A stretch of DNA of 44,290 bases, counting the filler, from Jimgerdemannia flammicorona (lineage: Eukaryota), in the NCBI GenBank assembly GCA_003990765.1. It is 2 parts of 2 records of this genome, joined end to end, with 100 filler letters (N's around TTAATTAATTAA, not from the genome) between each part and the next. Parts side by side here need not be neighbours in the genome. Positions count along the whole stretch, not along the records: positions 1 to 22,101 come from RBNJ01001336.1; 1 more part is not named here. The stretch is one strand, 5' to 3'. The notes under the pieces are model-generated. The model searched no databases and was not told the origin of the DNA. It saw only the letters and a list, made by a program, of their open reading frames with translations. Positions 5,781-32,511 of this stretch are shown in pieces. The position numbers and the translations under genes were made by a program. The stretch's first letter is position 1. Every line of letters begins with the position of its first letter.

Positions 5781-5887
5781 GTTGTTAGTCTCTTTTCCCT
5801 GAAAACAATGTCGAAAGTGCCTCCCAAAGGTTGTGTAACCCGAATGGTACTGAAAAGAGATGTCACGCCTCCCACCTTTGCTATACA

Positions 5888-8800
5888 CTTCTCACCTGAA
5901 GAGCCCTTGTAAGAAACTTCAAGAGCCACTCTCCTTCCTCCAGCCCCTATCAATGAAGCTGTGCTGTCAGACCCTGGACCCTTGCCTCCTCCTCATTCTG
6001 CAGCACCTGTTGTAGTTCAGCCACCTCCATTTATAGTCTTATCAATCACCAGTCCTCCTCCCCCTCCAATGTCACCAGTCTTGCCCAGTCCTCCAAGAGT
6101 CTAGATAATCTATGCAATGCTCACCACACCTGCTGTCTCCTCTGTCTCTCTGCCTCCATACCAGCCTCACTCCAGAAGGCCCTGGCCATCTCCTTCATCC
6201 TCATCTACTAAATATCAACTGTTACACCTCCCTGCCTCCAACACTCCACCTGCATTTGAATGACTTCAGCCCATTTACCCCACAGGATCTTATCATCTAG
6301 TAGGGAGGAATTGAGATGCCAATGTCCAGGCCCATCTCCACTCCCCCCAAAATGTCCCTGCCTCAAAAGCCCCCAATGATCTGACCAAGGACACCATTCC
6401 ATCTCCAGTGACTTCCAAACATCCAGGCCCCAGCAGCTGGCTGTCAGAATCCAATCAATTCTTGTCCCCTGGCCCCCAGCCCAGTGTGTATACACCCTCC
6501 TATTCCCCCAACATTCTCTACCCACATCCACCAGAGCACCCACTTCCTCCCACGCTGCCAGTCCTCCACTCTGCCCCACAGCACCTTGTCTCCCATCAGT
6601 TCTATCCCTCAATATGTCTCAGACCATATTGAAGTCCCCACTGAGCACATCTACCCCAACCTCTGCAAGAATCCCACTCTCCTATAGGCCTGTCACCCAA
6701 TTCACCTGCTTGCCCTATACTGCAGAGCAGTAACAGGAGCCCACCATGACTGGCTCCCAATCTGCATGTATCCACTCTCCCCAGACCAATCTATCCCCCC
6801 AGCTCTGCACATCCCATATCTCCCCTCTACTCTTCTGCACCAGAATTCCAACCTTGTCCTTCCAAACTGCCTCACCTCCCCACTTCTTCATCCATCTCAG
6901 TCTATCCAAGTCATCCTCACATCTGACATCCTATAAGAGGAAGAGATCAGTCTCCAATTTCTTCAGCCAAGTAAAAATATTCTTTCATCAATAAGTGCCC
7001 CATAACCTATTCATGTTTAAAGAAAAAATGTTGGTTGTACTATTCATAAGAAAATTATATAGTTTCAGATGCAACCTCTACTGCTCTATGTCCACTTCCT
7101 CCTGTACCCTATCCAGATTGCACTCAGCAATAGCTTCTGCTTCCTCGGTCCTCTTAGCCTCCAATTCAGCCAGGATTTCTGCCATCTCCCCATCCTCCTT
7201 TTCCTCAAACTCCTCATAGTACTCCAAACAAGCCTCCTGCCAGAGCTGCAGTCCATGCCTCTTAGTCCAACAGTGGGCAGTCCACTCACCTGCCACAACT
7301 GCCAGAGCAGCTTCCCTCTCCTTATCTACCTTATACCTCTCCTCCTCCAAGTATACTGCCAGAATTTCTGTCTTCAATGCTGCCACCACTCCATCTCCTT
7401 GCAGGATCCTGGCCCAATGCTCATTGCTCATCACTCAGAAGTTGACTTCTCTCAGCTCTTCTGCTGCCAAGTTGTTCATCATCTGGCATATCCAGAGCAA
7501 GTTTCCCACCTCCTTCCCTCCTGGGGTCACTGGCCTCCCTCCATCCAACATCGTAGTATCTGCCCCTACACTCACTGACTCATTCCATCTCTCCTCTGAG
7601 ACATCCACCAATTCCTCTTCCCCAGTTGCCTCTACCAATCCCCCCTTCTCTATATTTGGGACTCCAAAGTATATTAGCTGAGTACCACACATTGGCACAT
7701 CCTCCATCACTCTACCTTTTACTGCTGGACCCCTTCTAATAAGGGGAGAGGGAGAAGGTGAACCCTCCCAGGTTTCCTCCCAAACCTCCAGTGTGCCATC
7801 TTCATATGGATTCTTACTCGGCACCTTCATGGCCTCCACCTGCCCCCTCTCCTCATTCTGTCCACTACTGGTAGCCCAGACACTCGCCTCAGCACCTTTA
7901 GCGGTTGCACTATCGCTTGCCTTCCTTGTTACCTCTACCCCCATTTTCACCAATAATTTCCTCTTCCTTCTGCGCCCTTGGGACCTCTCCCATACCTCCT
8001 TGTTGATGTGGACTCACTTTCCTCCAACCACCTCAAGATGTGTCGCCACCTCAAATGCCTTCCATGCTTTCGCCCTCCTCTCAACTGCCCCACTCAACTC
8101 CTTCAGTGCTTTCAGCAAATCCTCCTCCTCCTCCTCACTCCCCTTTACTCTTGTCACCTTACACAAGATAGCCCCCCACATTATCACTGAGGGCTAGTCC
8201 TGAGCCTTCCCAGTAGCCTCCTGCCCAGCTAGCTGAATCCTGACATCAACATCCTCTATCTGGAGGGAGATTCCTTCCCACACTCTGAACCCAATATTGA
8301 CTACCTCTCCATACTCCGCCATAATCTCCTTGACTTTCTTCCTCATCTCTATAGCAATTACAGTGGGAACTCCTTTTACCAGAAGCTGCACCACTCTCGG
8401 GTCCCACCACAGGCATCTCACCATTGGTACACACACCTCACCCACTCTCAACCCAGTCTTCAAAGCCTCCTCCAGTGGCCCAGCCTCCTCAAATCCTACC
8501 TCCACCCCTTCTAGGCCCTTCAGGAACTTAACTGATGCCACCCCACCCATCTGCTTTGCAATCAGCCTTAGAACTATTTTTGCTATCACCACCAAGCCCC
8601 AGAAACACATTATGACTACAAATTCTGAGATCGACTTCTTGAGTAACAGAGCCACTGCCAGTCTCGTTACACTATTCGCCAGGTCCTCGGGCCTTGTGCC
8701 CTTCCCACTGCTTGGCTCACCATCAGCAGTTCCATCTAGATTTTTTTCCAGATCACCTGTCACACCCCCATCAGCAGTCTCTGCCTCAGCCACTACCCCT

Positions 8801-9071
8801 CTAGCTCCACCCCTATGGCCCTTCAGAGAGGTACCCCCATGAGGTTGCTGCCTGGTAGCCCTCACCGGTACCTTCTCCCCTCTCAGCCAGCTCTCCAATC
8901 CAGCTCTCTGTTAACCCCCCTTCACCTTCTCCACAAAGCTCACTCTGCCAGACCCTTGACCTCCAGCTCCGCCCCCTCCTCCTCCACATCCTCCTGCCAG
9001 CAGGCCCCTCTTACTTCCCCCCAAGCCAGAACCTCTCTCCACTTACTGCCATTCAAATGCTCCAGGGCCAC
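5888..9071 (-). mobile_element. LINE copy 2 (same family): 5' part of ORF2 (ATG 7047) and most of ORF1 (stop 7078), interrupted by LINE copy 1 and by the Gypsy element
   Basis: Collinear with copy 1: 5891-6010 matches 2558-2680, and RIDWIL, WSDH and KEVGNLLWICQMMNNLAAEEL are shared. Confidence 0.9.
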
Positions 9072-11143
9072 TGTAAGCGCACAACCTCCAAGCCACCGAA
9101 ATTACATGTCACCCTCTGAACAAGCCACTGAAATTACATGCAACCTCTGAACAAATCTAGAAATCACCTGCTTGATCATGAAGCTGAGTCAAACCAAAGT
9201 CACAGCACACAAAGCTGAGTCAATACGAAGTCACGGAACACAAGATTTATACAAACGGAATCTTACCAATCAGAACCAAATGCATATATACCGAGCACCG
9301 AGATGTATCAAATCAGAGAACCAAAACAAACAACAACTACAACTTCCAAATACACAAATAATCACTGAGATCTACAACTGTATCCACACTGACATTTGGA
9401 ATGCCATTGTCAACCAAGCCACACTCCCTCTGCCCCTTATGAATATCCATAGCCTGGCACCCCTCTACTTCATGGAAGCCCGATGGAATGCCCTGAACAT
9501 GCTTAGCGAGACCTACCGAATCAGACAAATCTCAAGCTACTACCAGATTGGCTGCCTCCTGGAAGACATGGTCGAACACCACCATGATACAGACATTATC
9601 CAGATGTCTCAACACCAGAAGCTCATCGCCCGCAAACATTGAGAACTCTTCTATGAGTACAACACCTTTATTCCCCACCTCTGAGTCACTACCAGCAAAA
9701 TGGTTGCTACCCTGTCCTATGGCCAAATCGATGACATGATATAAGAACTCAACCACAAGTACCTCGAATACGTCCAGACTACAGACAGAACCTTCCTGCA
9801 CCCTGATGACCATATCCTGCAAATGCCTCAAGTCAGATAAGCCATGAAGGACATCTATGATATAATCCACTTCGATGAAGATGAAGCAGAAGACAATGAT
9901 CCCTCTGACGCCGACATGACCTCTAGCCAAGGATCTCTGCCAACCCTGATCACACCGCCAAACTTGCTGATGAACTTACAACAGTTTATAACCACATACA
10001 AGACTTATTGGAACAATGACCACTGGCACAAATACCAACCTGCATTCACTCCCGACTACTTCAACTACAATGAAGAGACCAGAGAACACAACCTGTATCT
10101 CCAGACAACCCTCGAGATTGAACCAACCACTCCACTACCTGAGTACAAGCGACATAAACCACAGCCGCCAGCTTACTACAATCCTGCAACTTATAGTGCT
10201 ATAACCTATAGAAGGTACACAGACAGTGAATCTGATGAAAGTGAAGACAATACACCCATCCTTCACCCACCAACACCTTATCCAGCCTATGAGACAGATG
10301 ATGCTATCTTGTGGGATGGAGACGAAGTTCCAATGTACTATTACCTCAGCGAACAAGGAGAAGTAATCCACGAACCATTATTTCTAGATGACTACTTCAT
10401 CAGAGATGATGCAATCAATGGTGATGTCATCGAAGACTACCCAGACAGCACCTAAACCCATAAATAGCCTAGCAGTCATAGTATAGTTAGATTAGCATTA
10501 TATGATGTAACTGTGAACTGACTCAGCAGTCAGATGATCTCTTGACATATCAGATCACACTTGTACTATATGACTGCATTCCGACTCAGCAAAGTACTTA
10601 GTGCTACATCCATATCTAGCATAGTCCAGATAGCCCCTCACTAGTATAAATACCCCCTCCCCCAGACCTCAGAATCTCAGACTTGAACAGACTCGAACAC
10701 ACAAGAACATTCCTGAATACTTCCCCACAATATCCCTTCATACAACTACTCCTAGTATAAGCAATATCATGAATAACAAATAAACCTATTCCATAACCCA
10801 CAAATCACTCTTAAGTAAATCTGCTCCCTGTTAGGTCCCACTCCTAACTCTGTCATGAAATTTCCTAATTGGGTATTGTCTGCAGTGATATGCCAATTCA
10901 ACTAAGCTGGTCTTAGTTTCTTGAACTTCCTGAAATACGGAAAAATCCTGAACACCTAGAACTAGTCCAGAAAAGGACTTTGGTTGAGACATCAATCTGA
11001 TCTTGAAATCAATAAGTGTAGAGGACGTACTCCATATGAAATTGATCTTGACCATAAGAAAACGGTCTTCCAGAACATTCAGAATATCCAGAGAACCTTT
11101 TCAGAACTACGTAATGGTCACCCTAAAAAGTAACCCTCTTACA
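9072..11143 (+). repeat. 5' LTR (2072 bp)
   Basis: Direct repeat of 17664-19735 (offset 8592). Termini TGTAAG/CTTACA, ~31-bp tandem repeats near the start, TATAAATA at 10645-10652, AATAAA at 10779-10784. Confidence 0.95.
9358..10455 (+). pseudogene. LTR-internal ORF (~365 codons, acidic, Tyr/His-rich, unknown function), 5' LTR copy
   Basis: Same frame and sequence as 17950-19047. Start decayed to ATA; stops at 9640, 9682 and 9838 are sense codons in the other LTR. Confidence 0.75.
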
Positions 11144-11146: not shown

Positions 11147-11158
11147 TGGTAGCAGTGG
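11147..11158 (+). promoter_or_regulatory. Primer-binding site, probably for initiator tRNA-Met
   Basis: TGGTAGCAG begins after a 3-nt spacer following the 5' LTR and is complementary to the ...CTGCTACCA 3' end typical of eukaryotic tRNAi-Met. Confidence 0.75.
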
Positions 11159-12105
11159 TTTACAATCCAATTCTGCTTCAAGATGCTTCCTCACCCCGCT
11201 ACAAACCCTTCTGAGAATTCCTATAAGTTGGTATAAAGCCCAACCTCTGAACTGGAATTTATCCTGAACCATCTGACAATCTGGAGAGAATTGAACCTGA
11301 CATATAAGGACAATTTGACCTCCACACCTGCAACAAGTGGGATAAACTTCATTCAAAGAAAGAAGTACTCTGGTTAAACCAACAAATAGATGAAACCCTA
11401 TTCACTGAACTCCTTGCACTACACCCAGCAAGTCAAGATGAAGAAGGTCTTATTGAAGCCTTCTTTACTCTTCTCAACAAGAGTTTTGTCAGCTCCACAA
11501 ATCCGAGCGACCTAGGACAACCAGCAGCAGTCTTTCTAGCCTTAGTTCCTCACGAAGCCCAAGCCTCTATAGCCAAGTGGCTCAACTCTACTGACTTTCA
11601 CCATACCAGGACCAAGACCACCTTATACTACTAATTCCAGAACAGCAAGGCCTGCCATATCCTCAAAGAAGAAGCAAGAGAAATCCTTCATCAACTACCT
11701 GACCCCGAACCTGAAGCAGGCCCTGCTACAGCCCTACCTGAATCTGAAACCAATACCGAACCTGAACTTGACTTTGAATTAAGTCCATCTGAAATCAGAT
11801 ATACAACTGATTCTGTCTACTTCGATGCCAAGCAAACCCAATTACACGGAGACCAAACCGAAGAAGAGGAGGAGTATCTCACTGAATTCGATCCCGGATA
11901 CACCACTGAAGGAGATATACGTCCATCAGGACAGAATACACCTATACTGCAATAAACAGTTATCTATCAAGCCCTCACTCCAGATCCACAACTACTACTC
12001 CAGCAACTTACACAGACTCAAAGAACTCCATCACACTCTGCACCAGTACCTCAAGTAGTACCAGTAACACCACTACCAGTAGTCCAACTGCCTCCAGTAA
12101 ATAAT

Positions 12106-15100
12106 ATGGCAAACCAACAGATTCTTGATCTCACAGCCCAAGTAGCTATAATGGCAGCAACCATTACTGCCTTAGCCGAACAGACCCAACCTACCAAAAA
12201 TCTGAGCCTACCTACCTTCAATGGTACTACACAAGAAGTCCAAAGCTTCATTAGTATAGTTGATACCAATTTCGAAGCCAATCAATGGACTAATGAGCGA
12301 GTCGCTGACCGCGTTCTGACAAACAATCAAGACCACACCCTGGAACAACTCTTTGCTACCACTACAGCCTATATCTGCCAAGTTGTTACATTTTTCCAAG
12401 GACCTGCCAAAGAATGGTGGCGAACCCTTCCTGAAAAACCCCTCACATAGGATACCCGACCTGCAGTAGTTGCTCAGAATGCAGCAAACAATGCCCCAGG
12501 ATATGGAGCCCATCCTGCAGCCCCTGGACTCAAACAACTTATGATTGCTCAATATTGCAGCAAAACTATGATCGCCGAATCTTGAGTAAAACTCTGCAAC
12601 CTCAAATTCGATGTACATGGCAAAGAAGAATTTGAAACCTTCTGTACAAAACTCGAGTCACTCCTGAACACTGTTGGTCTAGGATATATTGCCAATGATG
12701 AAGCATGAAATGGTACAAGAGCAGACCATTTATTTGATGCCCTGCCTGAATGGCTTACTAGAAAAATCCGAGAGCAAGGCTGCCCAGTTGGTTGTAATCA
12801 CCAACAATGGTGCCTGACAAGAATCAAGACCATAGTCAAGCGAATCCTAATAGCTGGACCAATTCTGCCCCGAAGACAATTTAACAACAAAGAAAGGACT
12901 TGGACCAAGAAAGAAGAATCCAAGCATGAAGCATCCCGAGCTCCCTTCACATCCACCTCTTGGATACCCAGAAATCCTGAACCCACCCAGCCCAGTACCT
13001 TCAAGAAACTTACTGAAGGTGAAAGGAATGAACTTCGAAGAAGTGGAGCATGTTTCTATTGCTGAAAGACAGGACATATGGCCAGTGCCTGCCCTAACCG
13101 AAAACCCCGAACAGCAATATGAGCAACTGTTACCACTCTTCACCACCTCAACAACCTGACCACCAGAACACTAGACTTTGTCAAGTTAAGACAAACTGCT
13201 AAGGCCCCAACCAAAGGAAGTCAAAAAGCAGCTGGATATGACCTGTATGCAGCTGAAGAAGCTACAGTTTCCAACTGAGAAGTCAAACAAGTCTATACAG
13301 GAATCAGTATCCAAATCCCTAAAGGACATGTTGGAAGAATATACTGTCGCAGCAGCCTAGTACTGAAAGGACTCTCAGTAGAAGGAGGAGTCATTGATGA
13401 AGATTACACAGGTGAAATCATTGTCCTCATTTGAAACCACAGTTGGACACCCTTCAAGATTCCTATTGGCTTCTGCATTGTCCAGATCTTGTTCGAAAAA
13501 ATTGAGTCTACCCTGACAGTCAAGGAAGTCCCTGAACTACTGCCCACCATCTGAGGATCCAAAGGATTTGGCTCATCAAACAAAGCCCTAGCTCAACCTA
13601 CCATGAGCAAAGAAGAACAATTCTACAAGAAGATCAAAGATGGATATGTACCAAGTGGCTGATGCCCTCATGGTATTGGAATGTACTCTTCTTGAATGAT
13701 TGATAATTGCTTCTCTTGTGTCAATGAACTGACTCAAAGAAGAACCAATAGAAGGAAAGCTCCTACAACTGAAATCACCACAATTGGATCAGACAAACTG
13801 CTCACTCTTAAGGCTTTTGTCAACGGAGCACCTGTTAAGATTATGATAGACAGTGGTGCCTCAGGCAACTTTATCAATGAAGAGACAGCCAACAGACTCA
13901 AGGTCTTCACCTCTCCAGTATAACAAACTCAAGCAGTTGCTACAGCTGATGGAATCTCACATGTTATTAGCAAAGAAGTCCACAATCTACCCTTCTGAAT
14001 TGGCGACTACTGAGTACATGTTACCCTCCAAATCGTACCACTTCCTGACAATGAAATCATCCTTGGGACTCTATGGTTAAAACAAGAGAACCCCATGATC
14101 GATTGGGTAAACCATTCTCTGACCATCAAGAAAGGACACCACAACTTCAAACTGCAAGGCAAAAAGGACCCACTTAATTCTAATGACTCTGGATCAAAGA
14201 TCACCCACATCAACAAGCTACAACTCAAGAAATTGGCCAAGAAATGCCCTCTCTTCGCCATCTCCATCCATCCATCCAAAGGAGAACCTGAGAATTCTGA
14301 AGAAGATTTTTCCAAAGTTGACAGCCATGTCAGACCACTACTCCAGAAATTCCGGGACATATTTCCAAAGAAGCTCCCAAAAGGCCTACCTCCCAAATAA
14401 GCAGTAGACCATGCTATCAAGACTATCCCAGATGCCAAACCAGCCTTCAAGTCAATTTACCACATATCTCTGAGAGAAATTGATGTACTCAAGAAGGAAA
14501 TCAATGAACTTCTAGAACAAGGATTCATCAGACCCAGCATATCACCCTATGGTGCACCAGTCCTCTTTATTGTCAAGAAAGGAGGAGACCTGCGAATGTA
14601 TATTGACTACCATGATCTCAATGAACAGACCATCAAGAACTGTTGCCCACTACCCAGAATCGATGAAATATTCGATAGGCTCACCAACTCACAATTCATG
14701 AGCTCTTTTGATCTGCGAAATAATTACTGGCAAATTGCCATGAAAGAAGAAGACATCTATAAGACAGCTTTCTGAACACGCTATGGACACTTTGAGTTCT
14801 TGGTTATGCCCTTTGGCTTAACTAATGCTCCAGCAACCTTCCAGACACTGATGAATACCATTCTGCATCCATACCTGGACAAATTCATTGTTGTCTACAT
14901 TGACGACATCCTAGTCTTCAGCAAAACCCTGGAAGAACATCTTGAACACCTTGAACTAGTGCTACTAAAACTCTGAGAAAACCGACTCTTTGCAAAACTC
15001 AGCAAGTGCAAATTTCTTCTGAAAGAAATTCAATTCCTTGGACACATTGTCACTCCAAATGGAATCAAAGTGGACCCCAGCAAAATCTCTGCAATCAAAG

Positions 15101-17238
15101 ATTGGCCCACACCCAAGAAGCTGAAAGACCTCTAGTCATTCCTGGGATTAGCAAATTATTATAGGTGATTTGTTGCCAACTTTGCTAAAATCGCTACCAT
15201 CCTCACCCAAATGACCAAGCATAGTAAGAAACAAGAACAACCCTGGACCATGAAACAAGAGAAAGACTTCAACAATCTTGTAAATTGGGGATATGAATAA
15301 GATACTGCCTTCCAAGCACTGAAAGATGCTCTGATAACCACACCAGTACTTCAAGCGGCAAACTCTACCCTACTATATGAAGTCACCACTGATGCCTCTG
15401 ACCTAGCTCTTGGAGCAGTGCTCATGCAAGAAGGACACCCTGTGGCCTATCACTCCCGCAAGTTCAATGATGCTGAAATCAACTATACAACTCATGAGAA
15501 GGAAATGCTAGCCATCGTAGATACTCTGATCAAATGGTGACCATATCTAGAAGAAGCACACTTCACTGTGTTGACTGACCACAAGTCATTAGTCAACATC
15601 AAGACACAGGCTACCCTTTCTCGAAAGCAAGCCAGATGGATGAAAGTCCTCACCAACTTTGACTACGAAATCCAGTACTGCCCTGGCAAGGAAAATATTG
15701 TTGCTGATGCAATCTCCAGACCACCAATCAAAGAGGTTATCCAAACTCTGACCTTGGTTACCAACACTATCATGGAACAAATCATTGCAGCATGTATTGA
15801 TGATAAAGAAGCTCAAGCACTCCAAGAAATTCTGAACAATGATGATGCTGACAAGCATACCTGGTACAATCAATACCAACTCAAGGACAATGCTATCTAC
15901 TACAAGGACAGATTGTATGTTCCAAACAACCGAGACCTCTGAAGGACTATCCTATTCGAATGTCATAATGCCCCTACAGCTGGACATTTAGGATTTGATA
16001 AATGTTACAAAGTTATCTTCCGAAACTTCTATTGGCCCCACATGGCAGATCAGCTCAAAACCTACATTACTTCTTGTAATGCCTGCCAATGAAACAAGTC
16101 CTCAACACTAGCAAAACCTGGCTTACTCCACTCTATCCTGGTACCATCTGCAAATTGGGAACAAATCTCTATGGACTTCATTATACAACTATCCCGAACC
16201 AAGAATGGGAAAGATGTAATTGTTGTCTTTGTGGACTACATCAGCAAACAAGCCCACTTTTTGGCCACTACCACTACTGCAACAGCACCAGACATAGCCA
16301 CACTCTTGTTTAACAACATCTTCTGCTATCATGGTCTTCCCAAGATCATTGTTAGTGACTGAGATCCGAAATTCACCAGCCACTTTTGGAAAGCCCTCCA
16401 TACATACCTTGGAACAAAACTTGCACTATCCACAGCCATTCACCCTGAAACTGATGGCCAAACTGAAAGAATGAACTGAACTCTGGAACAAATGCTAAGG
16501 AACTATGTCTTCTACAGATAAGATGATTGGTATGAACACCTCACCGCAGTTGAGTTTGCCTATAACAATAGCAAGCAAGCCTCTCTTGGAATGACCCCAT
16601 TCTTCGCCAACACTGGACAAAACCCAAACACCCCTTTGACACTTATCTGAACTACCGATGAACCCTCCACAGTTGAAGCTGTTGAAGAATTCCTACTCCG
16701 AATGCGCAATCTAAGCCAGATCGCAATTGAGAATTTATCACGAGCTCAAGAACAACTGTCACAGTATGTTAACTAACACCACTGAGAAGAAACCTTTGAC
16801 ATTGGAGAAAAAGTTCTACTAGACATCAGAGGATACTGAGTTGACAACCTCAAGCACAGACCATCTACAAAGCTGAACAGCAAGTTCATTGGACCATTTG
16901 AAGTCATTGCACAAGTCACTCCAACCTCCTACAAACTGGCACTACCAGACACCATTAAGATTCACCCAGTCTTTAATATTCAATGTCTTAAGTGATACAA
17001 TGACAATGATGACGAGCTATTTCCAAACCGAACCACCAAACCACCTGTACCTGTCATCATTAATGATCAAGAAGAATATGAAGTTGAACAAATCCTCAAC
17101 AAACATGGTAACAAGAACCATCCCAAGTACCTTGTCAAATGGAAAGGTTACCCAATCCATGATGCAACCTGGGAACCCAAGACCAATCTCCAGAATGCTA
17201 CTGACTTAGTTCAGGAATATGATTCCTTGAACAACTAG
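12106..17238 (+). pseudogene. Single-frame Gag-Pol polyprotein (Gag, CCHC knuckle, dUTPase, aspartic protease, RT, RNase H, integrase, chromodomain), many stops
   Basis: All fragments share one frame: LPTFNG (Gag), CFYC*KTGHMASAC (~13051-13092), [24 protein letters not shown] (~14896), [49 protein letters not shown]...YLVKWKGY...TWEP; stop at 17236-17238. The frame may begin further upstream. Confidence 0.93.
13171..13578 (+). pseudogene. dut: Trimeric dUTPase domain within the Gypsy polyprotein
   Basis: Hand translation shows all five motifs: AAGYDLY, IYCRSS, GGVIDEDYTGEI, IVQ, (R)GSKGFGSS. Three TGA stops are consistent with CGA>TGA. Confidence 0.93.
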
Positions 17239-17649
17239 AACCAAATATTCCGCACCCATCTACACATACTATATATTATCCTCCTGAACATTATAATTAT
17301 TGTGAACCAAACCAAGAACTCAGCAAAATAAGACAAGAATACCAAATCCCTGGAAAAATAGCAAAACTGAAAGCAAGCCTATTCTCCCTGTACCACTGGT
17401 GGGAAACAAGGTGTAGACATTTAAGAAGATTCCTTAGAGGAAATTCTCCAGCAGTGAATGACATCAGAATCACTTCCGGCGCACGGCATTGAACACATGA
17501 CCCTTTAACATGTGAATCCAACACGTTAGGCAACTATACTACAAGCATGCCACTTTCTGAGAAAATGGACCTTACCAGACTTTTGACCTCCCAAACGGTA
17601 TAACAACACTAGAACAAATTAGAAGGCCCCGATGAGGATGTTGAAAGCT

Positions 17650-17662
17650 AAGAAGGGGAGAG
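17650..17662 (+). promoter_or_regulatory. Polypurine tract
   Basis: AAGAAGGGGAGAG immediately before the 3' LTR start at 17664. Confidence 0.88.
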
Positions 17663-17663
17663 T

Positions 17664-19735
17664 TGTAAGCGCACAACCTCCAAGCCACCAAAATTACACA
17701 TCACCCTCTGAACAAGCCACCAAAATTACACACGATCTCTGAACAAATCTGGAAATCACCTGCTTGATTATGAAGCTGAGTCAAACCAAAGTCACAGTGC
17801 ACAAAGCTGAGTCAATACGAAGTCACGGAACACAAGATTTACACAAACGGAATCTTACCAATCAGGACCAAATGTATATATACCGAGCACCAAGATGCAT
17901 CAAATCAGAGAACCAAAACAAACAACAACTATAACTTCCAAATACACAAATGACCACTGAGATCTACAACCATATCCACACTGACATTTGGAATGCCATT
18001 GTCAACCGAGCCACACCCCCTCTGCCCCTCATGAATATCCATAGCCTGGCACCCCTCTACTTCGTGGAAGCCCGATGGAACACCCTGAACATGCTTAGCG
18101 AGGCCCACCGAATCGGACAAATCTCAAGCTACTACCAGATTGGCTGCCTCCTGGAAGACATGGTCAAACACCACCATGATATAGACATTACCCAGATGTC
18201 TCAACACCAGAAGCTCATCGCCTGCAAACATCAAGAACTCTTCTATGAGTACAACACCTTTATTCCCCACCTCCGAGTTACTACCAGCGAAATGGTTGCT
18301 ACCCTGTCCTATGGCCAAATCAATGACATGATACAAGAACTCAACCACAAGTACCTCGAATATGTCCAGACCACAGACAGAACCTTCCCGCACCCTGATG
18401 ACTATATCCTGCAAATGCCTCAAGTTGGATACACCATAAAGGATGTCTACGATATAATCCACTTCGACAAAGATGAAGCAGAAGACAATGATCCCTCTGA
18501 CGCCGATATGACCTCTAGTCAAGAATCTCTGCCAACCCTGATCACACCACCAAACTTGCCAATGAACTTGCAACAGTTCATAACCGCATATGAGACTTAT
18601 TGGGACAATGACCACTGGCACGAATACCAACCTGCATTCACCCCCGACTACTTCAACTACAATGAAGAGACCGGAGAACACAATCTGTACCTCCAGACAA
18701 CCCTCGAGATTGAACCAACCACTCCACCACCTGAGTATGAGTGACATGAACCACAGCCACCAGCTTACTACAATCCTGCAACTCATAGTGCTGTAACCTA
18801 TAGAAGGTATGCAGACAGTGAATCTGATGAAAGCAAAGACAATACACCCATCCTTTGCCCACCAACACCTTATCCAGCCTATGAGACAGACAATGCTATC
18901 TTGTGAGATGGAGATGAAGTTCTGATGTACTATTACCTCAGCAAACAAGGAGAAGTAATCCGCGAACCATTATTTCTAGATGACTACTTCATCAGAGATG
19001 ATGCAATTGATGGTGATATCATCGAAGACTACCCAGACAGCACCTAAACCCATAAATAGCCTAGTAGTCATAGTATAGTTAGATTAGTATTATATGACAT
19101 GACTGTGAACTGACTCAGCAGTCAGACGATCTCTTGACATGTCAGATCACACTTGTACTACATGACTGCATTCCGACTCAGCAAAGCACTTAGTGCTACA
19201 TCCATATCTAGTATAGTCCAGATAGCCCCTTACTAGTATAAATACCCCCTCCCCCAGACCTCAGAATCTCAGACTTGAATAGACTCAAACACATAAGAAC
19301 ATTTCTGAATACTTCCCCACAATATCCCTTCATACAACTACTCCTAGTATAAGCAATATCATGGATAGCAAATAAACCTATTCCATAATCCACAAACTAC
19401 TCTTAAGTAAATCTGCTCCCTATTAGGTCCCACTCCTAACTCCATCATGAAATTTCCTAATTGGGTATTGTCTGCAGCGATATGCCAATTCAACTAAGCT
19501 GGTCTTAGTTTCTTGAACTTCCTGAAATATGGAAAAATCCTGAACACCTAGAACTAGTCCAGAAAAGGACTTTGGTTGAGACGTCAACCCGATCTTAAAA
19601 TCAATAAGCGTAGAGGATGTACTCCATACGAAATTGATCTTGACCATAAGAAAATGGTCTTCCAGAACATCTAGAATATCCAGAGAACCTTTCCAGAACT
19701 ATGTAACGGTCACCCTAAAAAGTAACCCTTTTATA
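17664..19735 (+). repeat. 3' LTR (2072 bp)
   Basis: Direct repeat of 9072-11143, differing mainly by transitions. Confidence 0.95.
17950..19047 (+). pseudogene. LTR-internal ORF, 3' LTR copy
   Basis: ATG at 17950, open for 264 aa. Stops at 18742 (CGA in the 5' LTR) and ~18904 (TGG in the 5' LTR). Ends EDYPDST* as in the 5' copy. Confidence 0.78.
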
Positions 19736-19862
19736 GCTACCCTGCCCAGTACACACCTCTAGATACTCATTGATTACCATGATACTAGTAGCTTGTCTCC
19801 AGAAACTGTATTGAAAGTGTTGCCAAAAGATTGTATAACCTGAATGTTACCAGAGAAAGATA
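19736..19862 (-). mobile_element. 5' end of LINE copy 2 (ORF1 ATG at 19780 plus 5' UTR), split off by the Gypsy insertion
   Basis: CCTGCCCAGT...TTGTATAACCTGAATG matches copy-1 positions 5741-5860. Confidence 0.88.
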
Positions 19863-20927
19863 TTGAAAGGACTCTCAGTAGAAGGAGGAGTTATCAATGA
19901 AGATTATACAGGCGAAATCATTATTCTCATTTGAAACCACAGTTGGACACCCTTCAAGATCCCTATAGGTTTCTGCATTGCCCAGATTCTATTCAAAAAA
20001 ATCGAGTCAACCCTGACAGTCAAGGAAGTCCCTGAACTACTGCCTACCATCCGAGGATCCAAAGGATTTGGCTCATTGAACAAGACCCCAGCCCAATCTA
20101 CCATGAGTAGTGCACCCAATGAATCAAATCAAATCGAATTTGGCCCAAACTCGATTCGATTCAATTGAATCAAGGGTCCAATTTGATTCAAAGTTCAATT
20201 TGAACCCTAATTTTCAAAATGTAATAACTCAACGAAAACTCATCTAAATTTAACATATTTTATCTTGTTAGATTCATCATATTAATGTGATTCTAACAAG
20301 CTAAAGTATGTTAGATTTGGATGAGTTTACGCTGAGTTATTGCATTTTGAAAATTAGGGTTCGAATCAGATCCTCAATTCAATTCGACTTTTGATTTGAT
20401 TCAAATTGATTCGAATTGAAAAATCCCCAATTCGATTCAACTCATTTAACCCTCAATTCGATTTGATTCGAATTGATTTGACTCATTTGGGAGCACTAAC
20501 CATGAGCAAAGAAGAACAATTCTACAAGAAGATTGAAGACAGATATGTACCAAGTAGCTGATGTCCTCATGGTATTAGAATGTACTCTTCTCAAATGATT
20601 GATGATTGCTTCTCTTGTGTCAATGAACTAGCTCAAAGAAGAACCAACAGAAGGAAAGGTCCTACAACCAAAATCACCACCATTGGATCAGACAAACTAC
20701 TTATACTTAAAGCTTTTGTCAACCAAGTACCTGTTAAGATTATGATAGACAGTGGTGCTTCAGGCAACTTCATCAATGAAGAGACAGCCAACAGACTCAA
20801 GGTCTTTACCTCTCCAGTACAGCAAACTCAAGCAGTTTCTACAGCTGATGGAACCTCACATGTTATTAGCAAAGAAGTTTGCAATCTACCCTTCTGAATT
20901 GGCAACTATCGAGTATATATTACCCTC
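19861..20927 (+). mobile_element. Fragment of a second copy (B) of the same Gypsy family: dUTPase C-half, Cys/His linker, protease
   Basis: Collinear with 13361-14028 apart from the MITE; contains MIDSGASGNF. Confidence 0.92.
20108..20498. mobile_element. hAT-type MITE, 391 bp, largely palindromic
   Basis: TIRs TAGTGCACCCAATGAATCAAATC / GATTTGACTCATTTGGGAGCACTA; perfect 8-bp TSD ACCATGAG (20100-20107, 20499-20506); the empty site is present in copy A at ~13600. Confidence 0.93.
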
Positions 20928-22101
20928 AGCTCCTTTCTCTGCTACCTTACCGGTCACAAGGTTTGGTAGGCAACCTTCCAAGTCCCCTTTCCCCTAATAT
21001 TACCCCCTCTACCTCGGGTTGGTTTGCTGTGCCTGTAGGGGCATGGTGGGAGGAGGGCAATGGTGATGAGTTGCCCCTTTATCGGTGTCAGATCGGTGCT
21101 TCCTCCACTTTTTCGTGGATTCTGGTGCCTTCAGCTGCATCTGGGGTGTACCCGTTTTGGTGCGGTGCCTTCTTCCTTTTGCCGTCGCCAACAAGGAGTT
21201 GTCTTGGTGTGTCTCAGACTATGTAGGGAGTCGGCCGACCTTGGGCGTCAAGTGCTCAGTGTAGGTTACCTGCACATCCTCAGTGCCTGTGGTGGGGCCC
21301 TCTGGCTTTGGTGAGCTTCCCGGCGAGCGTGGTTCTGGTGTAGGTGACTGCTTTTTGGGTGTTGTCGGGATGGGAGGGGAGATGGCCGTCACAGATAGGC
21401 AGAAGGACAATTACGGTGAACCAGTAGGGTGCCAGGCTGGGGGCGGTCATCGGGGCTGGGGCAGGTGCTGCTTCGGTGGGGCCTTTTGATTGGTGCGGCG
21501 CGGTTAGGTGGTAGGTGTCACTCTCGGCTTCTTTTGGCGGGTAGCGGGGTGAGGCCCCAGTCGTCAGGGGGGGTTGGGGGGCCCGAGGCTACCCATTTCA
21601 GGTGTCTTGGCTGCACTCAACTGGAACCGGGAGCTGACATGGTAACGTGATTGAGGCCCGTAGGCTTGAGTAGTGGGGTATTGGAGGTTTCTTCCCGCCT
21701 CACGTGTAAGTCCTTTACTCATCTCGACTGGGAGAACCAGGCCCTACCCACTGTGTTGTACTTTGATGAGGGTTTTTTATTTACCTGTCATTCTCTTTGG
21801 GGTGGCAGGGGCTATTCTATTCGGCTCGGGCATGGCCTTGTACATATGGTGGGTTCTCAGGCATGCACTTTCGGTCGTTGGCATATGGTTGGATTTCCCC
21901 TGGTGGTAGGAAGAGCATGGTGCACAGAATGAGGTGCAGGCTTATTAGCCCTGCTGCGCCTGGTATGGTCAAGCTGCTGGACAATAGCTAGCCTAGGTTA
22001 ATGGGGGGGCAGTGCTTGGTGGGTGGTGGGGGAGGGTTTTGGCCTATATAGTCTAGGTTCCCTTCCAATAAAAATCCACGGGACATGAGTCCGTTAAAAA
22101 A
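20928..22101 (+). mobile_element. Poly(A)-tailed ~1.2 kb non-autonomous retroelement (SINE-like or LINE 3' piece), copy 1
   Basis: Abruptly interrupts Gypsy B, ends AATAAA...AAAAAA at the gap, is homologous end to end with 31305-32509, and has no convincing ORF. Confidence 0.75.
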
Positions 22102-22201
22102 NNNNNNNNNNNNNNNNNNNNNNNNNNNNNNNNNNNNNNNNNNNNTTAATTAATTAANNNNNNNNNNNNNNNNNNNNNNNNNNNNNNNNNNNNNNNNNNN
22201 N
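22102..22201. other. Assembly gap with artificial TTAATTAATTAA spacer
   Basis: 100-nt block of Ns with a central six-frame-stop linker at 22146-22157. Confidence 0.9.
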
Positions 22202-24050
22202 AGAATTCGGCAGGCAAAATTTCGTTTACGATCGACACATGGATATCCCCCAATACAATTTCATTTCTGAGCATTACCAGTCATTGGATTGACCTCGATT
22301 GGCAGCTTAAATCTCTCACCCTTGACTTCGTCAAACTTGCTGGCCCTCATTCTGGAGACAACATCGCAGATGCTTTTATTAGTTGTATCTGGGAGCTTGG
22401 GATCACCACCAAGGTAAAAAAGGGGGGCTTGCCATCAGGTCAGCGTTTTGAGGGAGGTCCTAAACCAAACCAGATTTTATTGGTTACTTATTTTCACATA
22501 AATTTATCAACCAAATATTTCAAGTACAGATTTTGGCCATTACGATGGACAATGCCACAAACAACTCAACATTTTTCCAAGGTTTAGTGGCTAGCCTCAA
22601 ACAGGAAAACGTGGCCTTCAGTACAGAAAGCTGCCGTGTGTGATGCCAGGTCCACGTACTGAACCTCGCTGTTCAGGACTATCTTACGCACATAGACAAA
22701 ACATCCGAGAGAGGAGGTGCCCTGAGTATAATTTCCAAGCTGTACAAACTGGTTGTATCGGTCCGATCATCCCCACAACGACAAGACAAATTCGCTGCAT
22801 AGTGTAGGGCAATCAGTTAAGCCCCGAAAGAGCTTATATTGGATGTCTGTACATATTGAAACTCAACATTTGCAATGATCCAGCACATGCTGGAGTTTGC
22901 TATGGTATGCATCCTTTTTTTCTTTGGTCGGCTGAAGCAACTGTTTCGGATGATGGAAGATTTATTTTTTTAAAAAAAAAAAAAGCCAATAGATTCAACG
23001 ATGGCTACCGACAAGGAAATATGGGCCAAGGCTCTAGGTGAAAGCAAGTGGGACGTACTTAGGAATGTTGTCAGAGTTTTAGAAGTAAGTGGTGGTTGCT
23101 CTGGCTCCACACTCGTTTTGTCTACCTCTGCACAGTGCAACACCTCACCACATATAACTGCCAGTGTTTCGATGATTGTACAAAGGATATAGTCAAACAA
23201 ATGACCCTGACAATAAGCTCTGCGATACCGATATACAACCTTCTGATTGACTGGCTAGAGGACAAGCTCGAGGATAGGCTGGAGGGTTGCGGTGATTTAT
23301 AGTTAAGCCCGAATCAGAGAGATACCATGGTGGTTGCTCTAAGCAAGCTTAGAAAATACTACACCCAAACAGATACCGCCGTATACTCAATCAGTACAGG
23401 TATGTTGGCGTGTGGTCATTGCCCCTTCCAAAATAGAGGAAACCCTACAAAAACTCACTCTCCTTTTCTTCGAACAGTGCTGGACCCACGCTTAAAGCTA
23501 CAATACCATAAAGATCAGAGCTGGGAGCAGCACTTCATTGAGAGAACCAAGCAGGCCATAATTGAAGTGTACTGGAAAAACTACGCACCGCTGCAAGGTT
23601 CTGGCCGAAGTCCGGACGAATATGCTGAGGGATCCCTCCTGTCCCATATTTACTTCAGCAGAAAGAGGAAGAGGGAGCTGTCAGTGGAAGAGCTGCCACC
23701 AATAGATGAACTTACCATTTATCTTGCCAGCGACCACGTGGTTCTGCTGGAGGGTACGGAGGTGCTCAACTGGTGGAAGGTAGGTTGTCTGGTGGGCGTT
23801 GGGCCAATTTAACCCACCAATCTAACCACCGCTCTACTCTATCCACCGGGGTGTGCAGCTACATCAAACAGACTTCCCCAGCCTGTGTGGTATAGCTCAG
23901 GACTACCTGGCGATTCCTGCCTCCAGCGCTCCTGTCGAGCAGATGTTCTCAGGTGGGGTGGACCTCGTTGCCCCAAAGAGGTGTGCACTGAATGCTGAGA
24001 CAATCCGGGCATGTATGTGTCTAAAGTCTTGGTGGGGCTCGGGCTGCTAA
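22202..24050 (+). pseudogene. hAT transposase, intron-containing, 5' part missing, with stops
   Basis: Hand translation: ISFTIDTW, ITSHWID, GPHSGDNIA, ITMDNATNN, RV*CQVHVLNL (CxxH), LDPRLK, and dimerisation domain WWK...FPSL..IAQDYLAIPASSAPVEQMFS. Confidence 0.93.
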
Positions 24051-24159
24051 AATTTGGTGGATCCATGGATAAGTTGGTTGGCCTTGTGGAATATTTAATA
24101 CCTTTCAAATTAATAAAAGGAAAAAAACCTGAGGACTCGGCTCAGAGTTTGCGGCCAAA

Positions 24160-24470
24160 GTGGGGCAGGGTTGGCAGCCCCAAGCTGCCAGTGCCTGGGT
24201 CGGTGGGCAGGTCGGCGGAGGGAGCGCGCAAAATTTGCAGCCCTCCGCCGGCAGCAAGGGGCAGCTCCAAGCCGCAATTGTCTGGGTCAGGGGGGGAGGC
24301 GGAGGGAGTGCACAAAATTTGCGGCTCTCTGCCAGCAGCGAGGGGCAGCCCCAAGCTGTCAGTGCCCAGGTCAGTGGGCAGGTCGGTTGGTGGGCAGGGC
24401 AGGCGGAGGGAGCATGCAAAATTTGCGGCCCTCCGCCAGCGACATAGGGGCAGCCCCAAGCCGCCAAGGA
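24160..24470. repeat. GC-rich array of three hairpin modules with shared spacers
   Basis: GGCGGAGGG-AG...CAAAATTTGC-CCCTCCGCC at 24214-24249, 24298-24333 and 24402-24437, alternating with GGGCAGCCCCAAGC. Confidence 0.8.
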
Positions 24471-26810: not shown

Positions 26811-27009
26811 TGCAGGTGAAAAATGAGTAGACTGGACCAATGTACGAATTTAGGGCTGCTGTTTTGTTTGCTCGTGATGTGGCAAGAAAGAACAAAGAAA
26901 AAGAACAAAGAAAAGAGAGAGAACAAAGGAAAGGGTGATGTCACCAAAGTGCAGCAGAAAAAAAAAACAAGAGCAAAATGAATAAAAGAAAGAGTGATGT
27001 CACCAAAGA

Positions 27010-27233
27010 TTTCAATCTGAATGGATCAATCCAGATGGGTCAATCCGGATGGATCATCTGGATGGATCATCCGGATGGATCAATCCGGATGGATTAATCC
27101 AGATGGATCAATCCGGATCAATCCGGATCAATCCAGATCAGATCATGAGACCAATCCGAGTTGATTCGAATCCATCACATGACGAATCTGAATTGAATCT
27201 CATCCGGATCAACTCCATTCATTCGGAGCACTA
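27010..27233. repeat. hAT subterminal repeats (ATCCGGAT/GGATCA) and right TIR
   Basis: Dense ATCCGGAT/ATCCAGAT motifs ending in GGAGCACTA. Confidence 0.8.
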
Positions 27234-29219
27234 TATATATCTATAAAATACTAGTAGTTTTATATCTATCTTGTCTAGATATCTTGATTCAATTTATATA
27301 ATTGTTCAAATAGTAGCAGTTGTTTATTATTCAGCTTAAAAGTGAGAGATTTATCTTGAATCACTAGCCAATAGACACTAAGTTGTAATATAGTAGATAT
27401 ATAACTATATAAGTGTGTTGAATTTTTATATCTTAAAAACTTAATCTTCTTTGACTCTATAGAGTTCTTGGGATATAAGAGTGAGTAAGTTCAAAGTATA
27501 TCTGTCTGCAGACTTACTAGTTTCTTTACTTTCTCTTTGCTTTGAACTATTTTGATCTAAGGTTTATTCACTCTAAATACTGATGATATTTATATAAGTT
27601 TATTAGCTATAAGGTAGCTAAGTTATAACTATGTTTTCTGTAAATTACTTTCTACAAATATAGATTCTCTATATCTATAAAATATCTATATTTGTAAAGT
27701 TTCTACATTTGTAAAATATGACTACTATTTGTAAGACTATACTATATTTGGGAATTAGATTCAGATACTATAATCAAATATCTATTCTCCTAATTTATAT
27801 TTCTAATTTAGATCAATTATCATAGTATGTAAAGAAGACTTTTTTAACTGAGCTAAACTAACTCTACTGAGCTTTATTCACTCTAAAATACTGGGTTATT
27901 TATACAAATTTGTATACTAATTCTGCTACTAAATATATAGCTAAGTATCAAGTCTTTTTATGTGAAATTTCTAGCAGAATTCCATCTGTATCTCAGATAA
28001 AATCTCATGTGAAATCCTATCTGAAATTTATAAAAGTAATAAGAGTTTTACTGATAATGTTTTAGATATAGTATCTATAGTAAAAGTAATTTCTACATTA
28101 TAATAAATCAGGAAATCAGATTCAGATATCATAATTAAATATCTATTCTCTTGATTCTTATTTCTATTTCATACTATGTATTAAATATATAGTTATTCTA
28201 TATAAGATATATTACTACTAAGTTATAATTTTTATTAGTAATTCTATTGTAAATTCTACTGATAATTTTAGTAAAAATTTTATTGAAACTTCTAATAACT
28301 TATTACTATATAATAAATTATTATATCCTTCTCTTTTTTAATAAAATCTATTTATTTAATTTTATATCAAACTTCAGATATTTATTAAATTGAAATATAA
28401 TATATTAGATAACTTAAAAAATAATATTACTCTAATATTTATTAGTTAAATTAGTAATATTTTTAGAGAATACTTCTTGAAGATAGTTAAGAACTTATAA
28501 TTAAATATATATAGTCTTTTTGTAATAATATAAGTATAGTTATCTATATAATATTTAAGAGGATATTTATACTTATCTTGTCAAAAATATAACTATTTTT
28601 GGAAAATTTTATTAGAATTTCTAATATATAGTATATTTATATATATAATCAAGTTGCTACTTTTTTTATATTTAATAGAATATTTTCTTCTTTTTTTTAG
28701 ATAGTATTATACTTTGAGTAATCTTTCTATTTTATAAGATAGTACTGAGTAAACTTGGTAGTTTATCTAAACATTAGTCTTTATATAATAAATTATTATA
28801 TATCTATAAGCTATTGAAAATTCTAATAGAATTTCCAACAAAAATTTCTATAAAAATTTCTATAGAAATTCTAACTAATAGTTATAAATATTGAATATAG
28901 TATAATTATATATAGATATATCTAATATACTATATTTAATTATAGCTTTAAATTTGTTTAAATACTCTCTATATTGAGTGTATTATAATCTTAGCTTCAC
29001 TTTTCTCAAATATAAAAATAAAGTAGTATTCTTATTATAAAACCCTCAGACCTGACTTATTAATAATTCTGAGTCTAATTAACTTAAGATATAAGTTTAC
29101 CAGTATAAGAATCTGAAAGTGATATTTAGACTATACTACTATAATAAATAATTAGAACTCAGTACTTTCTTATTAAAACTTAGAACTTAGAGCTAATAGT
29201 TATTTTTATTATCTATAAC

Positions 29220-29500
29220 TAGTGCTCTCAATAAATCAAAGATCTAATTTAATTCAAAATTTAATTTCAACTTTATTTTATTTTTTATTTTATTTTATTT
29301 TATTTTTTGAAATATAATAATTTAATAAAAATATATCTCAATTTAATGATCTTTAGCTTGTTAAATTCCCCTATATTAGAGAAATCTAATAAGCTAAATA
29401 TTGTTAAATTTAGATATATTTTTATCAAGTTATTATATTTTAAAAAATAGAATTTAAATTAGACTCTCAATTTAATTTAAATTTGATTTAATTTAAATAA
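29220..29500. mobile_element. Decayed relative of the hAT MITE
   Basis: Starts TAGTGCTCTCAATAAATCAAA and has the same central palindrome layout (AAATATAATAA...CTTGTTA...CTAATAAGCTAAA...GTTATTATATTTT). Right end not clear. Confidence 0.65.
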
Positions 29501-31304: not shown

Positions 31305-32468
31305 ATATATCTTTCTTTGCTATCTTATCAGTTATAATAGTTTGGTAGATAATTTTTTAAGTCTATTTTTCACAACTAATATCTCCTCTATCTTAAATTA
31401 GTTTACTATATCTATTACAAAATAGTGAAAGAGAGGCAATAGTAATGAGTTGTCCCTTTATTGATATCAGATTGATATCTTCTCTACTTTTTTATAGTTT
31501 TTAGTATCTTTAGCTATATCTGGAGTATACTTATTTTAATATAATGCCTTCTTTCTTTTGTTATTATCAATAAGGTATCATCTTAGTATATTATAGATTA
31601 TATAGAGAGTCAGCTAATCTTAGACATCAGATACTTAGTATAGATTATCTGTAGATCCTCAGTATTTATGGTGGGATCCTTTGACTTTCGTGAGCTTCTC
31701 AGTGAGCATAGTTCTGATATAGATAATTGTTTTTTTTGAGTAATATCAAAATGAAAGAGGAGATAACTATCACAGATAAGAGAAAGAGTAATAATGATAG
31801 ATCAGTAGAGTATCAGACTAGGGGTAGTTATTAAGGCTGAGACAGATACTACTTTGGTGGGGTTTTTTGATTGATGTAGAGTAGTTAGATAGTAAGTATC
31901 ACTCTCAGCTACTTTTGATAATTCATAAGATTGGGCCCTAGTTATTAGAGATAGTTGAGCTATCTAGATCAGATATCTTGGCTACACTCAACTAGAACTG
32001 AGAGCTGATATAACAATATGATTAAGGCCTGCAGACTTGAGTAGTAGGATATTAGTGGTCTTCTTCTATCTTATATATAAGTCTTCTACTTATATATCTC
32101 ACTTGGAAGAACTAGGCCCTATCTACTATCTGTACTTTGAGGAGAGTTTTTTCTTTATCTATTATTTCTACTTAGGACGGCAGAAGTTATTCTATTTAGC
32201 TCAAGTATGGCCTTATATATACATTGAAGTTTCAGATATATGCTTTCAGTCATTGATATATAGTTGAGTTCTCTCTAATAGTAGAAAGAGCATAATATAC
32301 AAAATGAGATATAGGTTATATTAGACTCTACTATATCTAGTATAGTCAAGTTACTAGATAATAACTAGTCTAAATTCAATAAGAGAGCAGTGCTTGATGG
32401 ATGGTGAGAGAGAGTTTTGGTCTATATAGTCTAGGTTCTCTTCTAATAAAAATCTGTGGAACTTTGAG

Positions 32469-32509: not shown

Positions 32510-32511
<2 letters not shown>

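Follow-up and report, generated by a model that had tools for sequence, protein, structure and literature searches.

The two long terminal repeats (LTRs) of a chromovirus in the genome of Jimgerdemannia flammicorona (assembly GCA_003990765.1) each contain the same sense open reading frame (ORF) of 365 codons, which is very probably a real accessory gene of the element. The element lies in a stretch of 44,290 nucleotides, hereafter called the window, which consists of two parts from two records of this genome joined through 100 filler letters. We regard it as likely, though well short of certain, that the frame represents the remains of a real accessory gene which a chromovirus family carries wholly inside its LTR.

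The reading frame inside the LTRs

A preliminary description of this DNA had reported one and the same sense ORF in both 2072-bp LTRs. This is indeed the case: the ORF occupies LTR positions 287-1384 and is wholly inside both repeats (coordinates are given in Table 1). Internal stops now interrupt it at six sites, four in the 5' LTR copy (where the ATG has in addition become ATA) and two in the 3' LTR copy, and none of them is common to both. Each of the six sites is a sense codon in the other LTR, and likewise in P0004 or P0005, the two metagenome relatives described below, wherever they cover the site. Five of the six stops are C-to-T or G-to-A changes, while the sixth is TAA versus TAC, the one transversion in all 138 positions at which the LTRs differ. 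The frame was therefore open when this copy inserted, just as the preliminary description had proposed from the different positions of the stops and the open consensus.

When only stops common to both LTRs are counted, the frame of the ORF runs stop-free through 434 codons (9151-10455); 31-51 shared stops per 690 codons occur in the other LTR frames. In dinucleotide-preserving shuffles (2000 per copy), the mean numbers of in-frame stops were 21.4 and 22.0 and the minima 9 and 8, so that none of 2000 shuffles was as low as the observed 2 and 4. The antisense frame of the LTR ORF (9532-9930 / 18124-18948, minus strand) is itself open for 281 codons without a shared stop.

The position of the start codon was assessed with the help of contigs of the same element family, assembled from four sequencing runs. 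All of the 12 indels listed for these contigs (of 38) fall at 17152-17949, the spacer from the end of pol to the ATG, and they include an AC insertion directly before 17950; the contigs of two runs diverge upstream of 17950. An upstream extension to the in-frame ATG at 9178/17770 was rejected as coding because it shows no coding signal and because family copies carry the frame-shifting AC insertion. Given this insertion and divergence, the lack of coding signal at 17743-17949 and the initial Met of P0005, we place the start codon at 17950/9358, in agreement with the preliminary description. A 93-nt (31-codon) skip at 18140>18234 was disregarded, as it occurred in a single contig with a 22-nt side.

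Evidence for a real coding gene

We scored the LTR frames with a codon model trained only on pol of the element. The ORF scored +86.6 bits in the 3' copy and +73.5 bits in the 5' copy, whereas four other frames scored between -42 and -163 bits. The open antisense frame gave +7.9 and -1.0 bits, i.e., no coding signal; its openness probably just follows from how codons are used on the sense strand. In windows of 150 nt the score was positive in eight of eight within each copy of the ORF, negative or near zero (maximum +2.7) in the LTR flanks downstream of it, and near zero or negative upstream of 17950. The base composition by codon position likewise resembles that of gag-pol; for G, the fractions at the three positions are 0.27/0.10/0.14 in the ORF versus 0.27/0.13/0.12.

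A search of ~15 billion proteins returned only two relatives, P0004 and P0005, both of them metagenome proteins. P0005 (128 aa) is 88% identical to the ORF and begins at the Met of 17950. P0004 (247 aa) is 66% identical (164/250) over the C-terminal two-thirds, and aligns without any stop and with two gaps of two codons each. A third match, P0006 (E 1.7e-5), was set aside as a repetitive, unrelated protein. When neutral drift was simulated down to the identity of P0004 (300 runs per setting), 3.4-4.6 stops accumulated, and the probability of seeing none was 0.01-0.03.

The replacements that separate the ORF from P0004 also bear on selection. Among those due to a single transversion, 14 of 22 were conservative, whereas 31% would be expected (p = 0.0016). 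Differences between LTR1 and LTR2, in contrast, say nothing on selection, since the LTRs of one element diverge neutrally after insertion; the codon changes between the two ORF copies (25 synonymous, 50 non-synonymous) are to be read in this light. A comparison of the share of BLOSUM-positive replacements (0.53 versus 0.27-0.30 in simulations) was dropped because LTR1 versus LTR2, used as a neutral control, gives 0.52.

The element family is abundant in soil metagenome runs and in one organism, coded A, with thousands of family contigs across the four runs (738-8430 contig pieces per run match the element). Scans of metagenome, viral and genome contigs gave no DNA relatives of the ORF. There was no similarity either to gag-pol or to other sequence of the window of which the ORF might be a duplicate (best E 0.27).

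Altogether, the frame is open beyond chance, is coding in composition and has been kept across diverged copies. The codon model, the shuffles, the homologues and the simulation support the earlier suggestion of an accessory gene, in the sense of a real, selected coding sequence of the element. The family contigs add to this case, the 12 indels listed for them (of 38) being confined to the spacer ahead of the ATG.

Hypermutation of this copy and of the repeats

The differences between LTR1 and LTR2 are almost exclusively transitions (137 of 138), in both directions and on both strands. The mutated C was followed by A in 80 cases, by G in 35, by C in 18 and by T in 5; per available site, this amounts to 25% for CpG, 12% for CpA, 4.5% for CpC and 0.9% for CpT. 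A bias of the same kind is seen in other repeat pairs of the window, where transitions and transversion-type differences stand at 60:7 and 113:7, and in the family contigs of run X1, where 793 of 864 variant places are transitions. A repeat with 52% GC (21598-22101) and its 32%-GC twin (31969-32479) differ at 120 positions, 104 of which have G/C in the first and A/T in the second.

Differences between copies that are almost only C:G to T:A, affect both strands and show a dinucleotide preference are those expected of repeat-induced point mutation (RIP). Judging from this pattern, the cause is a RIP-like hypermutation or a heavy deamination of methylated cytosine, as deamination of methylated cytosines would give a similar picture. 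Whatever the process, the ORF in this copy was killed after insertion by the same C-to-T hypermutation that put stops in gag-pol. For the same reason, the 6.7% divergence of the LTRs cannot be used to date the insertion. In the window, the block at 27000-33000 has a GC content of 16-29%.

RID and RIP are placed in Ascomycota in the relevant passages of a 2026 review (PMC13297926), and a RIP-like pattern in Endogonales (Mucoromycota) accordingly deserves a look of its own.

The predicted protein

The product of the ORF would have 365 residues and an isoelectric point (pI) of 4.35. Among the 363 residues counted there are 62 Asp and Glu, 17 Lys and Arg, 30 Tyr, 30 Pro and 18 His, so acidic residues prevail and Tyr, His and Pro are plentiful, as the preliminary description had stated. 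It had also recognized no motif, and neither Pfam nor PDB and fold searches found a match. On these comparisons, the product is outside any known protein family.

In both AlphaFold models, which are of low confidence, the first ~145 residues form a bundle of four or five helices, and the remainder is largely unstructured, with disorder predicted for over half of the protein. A Foldseek search of the PDB with the model of the N-terminal domain gave a best hit that is meaningless (E 0.49, template-modelling score 0.30). The best score in the ESM Atlas (0.87, with low recognition) was a lead at best and was dropped.

The C-terminal tail is acidic, rich in Tyr, Pro and aromatic residues, and conserved (e.g., EPLFLDDYFIRDD). 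Compared with P0004, its blocks are kept at 17-20 of 23-25 positions; they include YQPAFTPDYFNYNE, SESDE..DNTPI, PPTPYPAY and EPLF.D.YFIRDD. No membrane segment was found (Kyte-Doolittle maximum 0.86-0.97 over 19 residues), and the product is therefore neither env-like nor Sag-like.

LTR control signals and placement of the ORF

Two TATA[AT]A sites (positions 214 and 1574) are the only ones on the + strand that both LTRs have, and AATAAA or ATTAAA occurs in both only once, at position 1708, downstream of the ORF. The first TATA site, TATATA, which adds to the preliminary description, is preceded by a CCAAT and by two tandem repeat pairs, and an A/C-rich leader separates it from the ATG. The second, TATAAATA, and the AATAAA were found where the preliminary description had put them (10645 and 10779), with the ORF upstream of both. 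Contigs of runs X9 and X3 have a joint that skips 31 nt at 17705>17737, which suggests that the copy number of the tandem repeat varies within the family.

It is plausible, from the order of these motifs, that the ORF lies in U3. This placement presumes that the genomic RNA is transcribed from TATAAATA at 10645; given the CCAAT/TATATA pair upstream of the ATG, the ORF could instead sit in a very long R. As the motifs stand, we think that the LTR holds two promoters in tandem. No convincing splice acceptor was seen before the ATG on inspection by eye. By analogy, a spliced subgenomic RNA like that of sag in mouse mammary tumor virus (MMTV) may exist for the ORF.

With CCAAT, TATATA and the repeats upstream of the ATG and the sole AATAAA downstream, each LTR may be a self-contained gene. 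Because the gene is wholly inside the LTR, every element holds two copies of it and a solo LTR holds one. It is reasonable to suppose that a solo LTR would keep the complete ORF, along with the two candidate promoters and the sole poly(A) signal.

Possible expression and function

The ORF might be expressed as follows. Transcription would start from a promoter of its own at the 5' end of the LTR (tandem repeats followed by CCAAT and TATATA, the latter 73 nt from the ATG) and would yield an mRNA of ~1.45 kb ending at the single AATAAA of the LTR. This transcript would start upstream of TATAAATA and read through it, while the second promoter, at TATAAATA, would probably start the genomic RNA. 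The ORF would thus be in U3 and, at the same time, be the 3'-most ORF of the genomic RNA.

As for the protein, its layout matches that of an acidic transcriptional activator: a folded N-terminal domain precedes an acidic, aromatic-rich tail with few Lys and Arg. The helical N-terminal domain (~145 residues) could serve as a tether, be it to DNA, to chromatin or to a protein of the element, and the acidic, aromatic-rich tail could recruit host transcription or chromatin factors. Acting in trans, the protein would then raise the expression of the LTRs of the family or counter their silencing. A trans-acting activator or anti-silencing factor with an N-terminal tether and a recruiting tail is, by analogy, a possibility that we put forward tentatively. 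Judged by composition, it comes close to the anti-silencing role suggested in the preliminary description, although neither a family nor a fold nor a motif points to that or to any other function. That each LTR, solo LTRs included, is an autonomous cassette making such a trans-acting activator or anti-silencing adaptor, and hence a 'public-good' gene present at twice the element copy number, seems to us rather unlikely.

Weighing of the alternatives

Several observations weigh against a functional gene with its own promoter and domain structure. Single-transition replacements relative to P0004 were conservative in 28 of 42 cases (36% expected), but the neutral control, LTR1 versus LTR2, was also above expectation for transitions (23/42, p = 0.011), so that the transversion figure alone carries weight. 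A full-length intact copy was not seen anywhere. Both relatives are incomplete, coming from contigs of 998 and 1180 bp, and there is an ascertainment bias, since their entry into the database depended on a gene caller finding them open. Annotated proteins of J. flammicorona (e.g., P0021) were in the searched database and none matched the ORF. Pfam returned no family for four readings of the protein, with E limits of 1 and of 5, and the best PDB sequence-profile match had an E of only 0.26. The domain picture is soft, AlphaFold confidence being low (predicted local distance difference test, pLDDT, 32.8 at full length and 49.4 for the N-terminal domain). Finally, promoter and function are read from motifs and composition, and with two TATA boxes in 2072 nt the chance that one falls within 100 nt upstream of the ATG is ~1 in 10.

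The main alternative accepts the gene as real and moves it out of U3. The CCAAT and TATATA would then be the true promoter of the element, R would be ~1.5 kb long, and the ORF would be a leader cistron, the first one of the genomic RNA, repeated at the 3' end of the RNA. This would agree with the location of the tandem repeats, CCAAT and TATATA at the extreme 5' end of the LTR, the usual site of U3 enhancers and promoters, and with a sole poly(A) signal downstream of the ORF. Such an arrangement is nevertheless unlikely, for TATAAATA with the AATAAA 134 nt on would leave a short R of the conventional kind and ~340 nt of U5, and a 1.1-kb upstream ORF, combined with polyadenylation at 1.5 kb past the cap, would be expected, from general knowledge, to hamper gag translation and the making of full-length RNA.

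The remaining alternatives deny that the ORF is a gene of use to the element. It could be a passenger, captured or arisen de novo, and be open through youth and not through selection; we find this improbable. No relative outside the family turned up among 1.84 billion representatives, and a protein devoid of known domains and predicted to be more than half disordered would fit such an origin, but a passenger would hardly be expected to have gag-pol codon usage, to stay open with in-frame gaps in a 66%-identical relative (neutral drift does so in 1-3% of simulations), or to conserve its tail motifs (18-20 of 25 positions). Very improbable, in our judgment, is a frame open by chance through an A/C-rich strand composition, or a true gene on the opposite strand in the 281-codon antisense frame. 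It is true that the + strand is poor in T and G and that the antisense frame is open over that length; however, no composition-preserving shuffle out of 2000 matched the observed stop count, the antisense frame lacks coding signal, and both outside proteins are in the sense frame.

Architecture of the element and its surroundings

The window contains a complete LTR retrotransposon, whose LTRs align without gaps at 93.3% identity over 2070 nt in a BLAST self-comparison. Its LTRs are direct repeats of the TG...CA type flanked by a short duplication, and a putative primer-binding site (PBS) and a polypurine tract adjoin them. Protease, reverse transcriptase, RNase H and integrase follow one another in this order, with a chromodomain after the integrase, as judged from Pfam. 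The element is a chromovirus, i.e., a chromodomain-bearing Ty3/Gypsy element, and it is structurally whole but dead, since the full set of domains is in one unshifted frame that has 31 stops in 1719 codons and no frameshift. A CCHC knuckle in gag was seen in the translation by eye only. The PBS-like sequence is also backed by a family contig in which the LTR end is joined to ...TTGGTAGCAGC.

Table 1. Coordinates of the features of the chromovirus and its LTRs, counted along the whole window
Feature	Position	Strand	Remarks
Target-site duplication, 5 bp	GCCAC 9067-9071 / GCTAC 19736-19740		One C/T difference; read from sequence
5' LTR	9072-11143	+	2072 bp; ends TGTAAG...CTTACA; BLAST self-comparison, ends read from sequence
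3' LTR	17664-19735	+	2072 bp; terminal CA now TA; BLAST self-comparison, ends read from sequence
Tandem repeat pair, 32 nt x 2.1	9089-9154 / 17681-17746	+	Tandem Repeats Finder; upstream of ORF
Tandem repeat pair, 31 nt x 2.0	9181-9243 / 17773-17835	+	Tandem Repeats Finder; upstream of ORF
CCAAT	9266-9270 / 17858-17862	+	LTR position 195
TATATA	9285-9290 / 17877-17882	+	LTR position 214; ATG 73 nt on, A/C-rich leader
LTR ORF, 5' copy	9358-10455	+	365 codons + stop; start now ATA; internal stops at 9640, 9682, 9742, 9838
LTR ORF, 3' copy	17950-19047	+	ATG at 17950; internal stops at 18742, 18904; natural stop TAA 19045-19047
Second TATA box, TATAAATA	10645-10652 / 19237	+	LTR position 1574; 190 nt past ORF stop
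AATAAA	10779-10784 / 19371	+	LTR position 1708; 134 nt past TATAAATA
PBS-like TGGTAGCAGTGG	11147-11158	+	3 nt past 5' LTR
gag-pol, single frame	11250-17238	+	gag, dUTPase, protease, RT, RNase H, integrase, SH3, chromodomain; Pfam; ~6.5-kb interior
dUTPase	13198-13578		Pfam 8.3e-31; between gag and protease
gag-asp_proteas			Pfam 1.6e-11; gag-pol frame
RVT_1			Pfam 1.4e-33; gag-pol frame
RT_RNaseH			Pfam 3.4e-31; gag-pol frame
Integrase_H2C2			Pfam 2.4e-17; gag-pol frame
rve			Pfam 2.5e-5, under Pfam's own cut-off; gag-pol frame
SH3_Tf2-1			Pfam 8.3e-16; gag-pol frame
Chromo			Pfam 7.1e-15; gag-pol frame, after integrase
Polypurine tract AAGAAGGGGAGAG	17650-17662	+	Before 3' LTR

For ~280 codons (11250-12105) ahead of its first Met (12106), the gag frame has few stops and a coding signal. 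We place the probable start of gag close to 11250-11300; a G-to-A change may have removed the start codon.

Directly past the 3' LTR, at 19861-20107 and 20499-20927, there are dUTPase and protease fragments that are 89-91% identical to 13361-14028. Some 390 nt of other sequence separate the two, and they belong to an older relative from the same family; the element thus sits beside or inside an older copy.

Upstream of the element, positions 1-9071 hold, on the minus strand, the remains of a non-LTR retrotransposon similar to long interspersed nuclear elements (LINEs), with a match to RVT_1 at 1768-2805 (6.2e-11) and endonuclease-like motifs seen by eye only. The strong excess of C over G on the + strand of this region is explained by these LINE-like remains. 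The same region contains two 3.2-kb tandem copies (2537-5740 and 5870-9071) that are 74% identical.

Runs of N occupy 22102-22145 and 22158-22201. For a possible hAT-type transposase with a C-terminal dimerisation motif, suspected by eye at 22300-24300 on the + strand, the three stop-free ORFs scanned there gave no Pfam match. At 35554-39000, on the + strand, lies a host CLU/TIF31 (clustered mitochondria) gene with several introns of ~85-180 nt, as seen by eye. Its exon at 35557-36354 is 100% identical to a J. flammicorona protein at NCBI, the next Mucoromycotina proteins being 72-75% identical, which makes the host this species or a very close relative. The observed/expected ratio of CpG is 1.04 over 33000-44290, the block with this gene, versus 0.15-0.50 in the repeats.

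Relation to known systems

A close parallel in layout is with sag of MMTV, a superantigen ORF of ~320-365 codons in the U3 of a betaretrovirus LTR, upstream of the LTR TATA box. Like sag, the ORF described here is wholly inside the LTR, upstream of a TATA box, present twice per provirus and located at the 3' end of the genomic RNA. It lies upstream of TATAAATA (10645), ending 190 nt before it, yet another motif pair, CCAAT/TATATA, is found upstream of the ORF. The resemblance does not extend to sequence family or membrane anchor. Pfam, which presumably holds an MMTV superantigen family, gave no match and there is no sequence similarity; Sag has a type II membrane anchor, whereas the LTR ORF product has no membrane segment. 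The carrier differs as well, being an env-less fungal chromovirus and not an infectious retrovirus.

Accessory ORFs that run into the U3 of the 3' LTR are also known as tas/bel1 and bet in foamy viruses and as nef in the human and simian immunodeficiency viruses (HIV/SIV). In foamy viruses, an internal promoter drives the accessory genes, including the one for the Tas transactivator. The present ORF shares with all of these a location that is plausibly in U3, and with foamy viruses a candidate second promoter upstream of the accessory gene and an acidic C-terminal region, as in a transactivator; these viruses served as the model for the mechanism proposed above. Unlike those ORFs, which only overlap the LTR, it is wholly inside the LTR, and it has no homology to them.

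The additional ORFs (aORFs) of plant LTR retrotransposons are described from the internal part of the element, either between the 5' LTR and gag or between pol and the 3' LTR. The LTR ORF resembles them as an extra ORF beyond gag-pol and differs from them in its location at LTR positions 287-1384. According to the sections of a review that deal with aORFs, their function is mostly unknown and they are often lineage-specific (Vicient and Casacuberta 2020, PMC7264820). Phrases for a location in, within or inside the LTR do not occur in the text of this review.

Fungal chromoviruses with a dUTPase at varying places in Pol appear in the relevant parts of Novikova et al. (2010, PMC2864245), where the elements come from Postia, Phanerochaete and Tuber, the dUTPase is at other Pol positions than here, and the drawings include an 'add. 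ORF' of unknown function for at least one element. As far as those parts go, our element is similar in being a fungal chromodomain Ty3/Gypsy element with a dUTPase and an additional ORF, and dissimilar in its Endogonales (Mucoromycota) host and in having the dUTPase between gag and protease.

Exact-wording searches of open-access text found no example in print of an ORF inside the LTR of a retrotransposon, although an earlier description may exist; the papers that they returned were retroviral or irrelevant, and word searches of a bdelloid rotifer paper and of a fungal LTR-element survey gave nothing on LTR-borne ORFs. Extra genes in LTR retrotransposons are known; what appears to be new is that this one is lodged within a chromovirus LTR, in an early-diverging fungus.

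Implications

LTRs are treated as non-coding control regions and are masked by annotation pipelines. A conserved gene inside an LTR would mean that coding capacity is being missed, both in the elements and in the far more numerous solo LTRs.

Should the product act in trans on the promoters or chromatin of its family, a plain retrotransposon would have a regulatory circuit like that of a retrovirus. Such a product would further qualify as a candidate driver behind the extreme load of repeats in this mycorrhizal lineage; a review (PMC10386755) gives, in the passage concerned, ~240 Mbp and >77% repeats for a genome of the Endogonales lineage. If, furthermore, each LTR were a cassette of its own, the gene would outlive the elements in solo LTRs and would offer a parallel to the foamy-virus circuit of tas and internal promoter, here in an env-less retrotransposon of an early-diverging fungus. 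In that event, it could have helped one chromovirus family to inflate an Endogonales genome.

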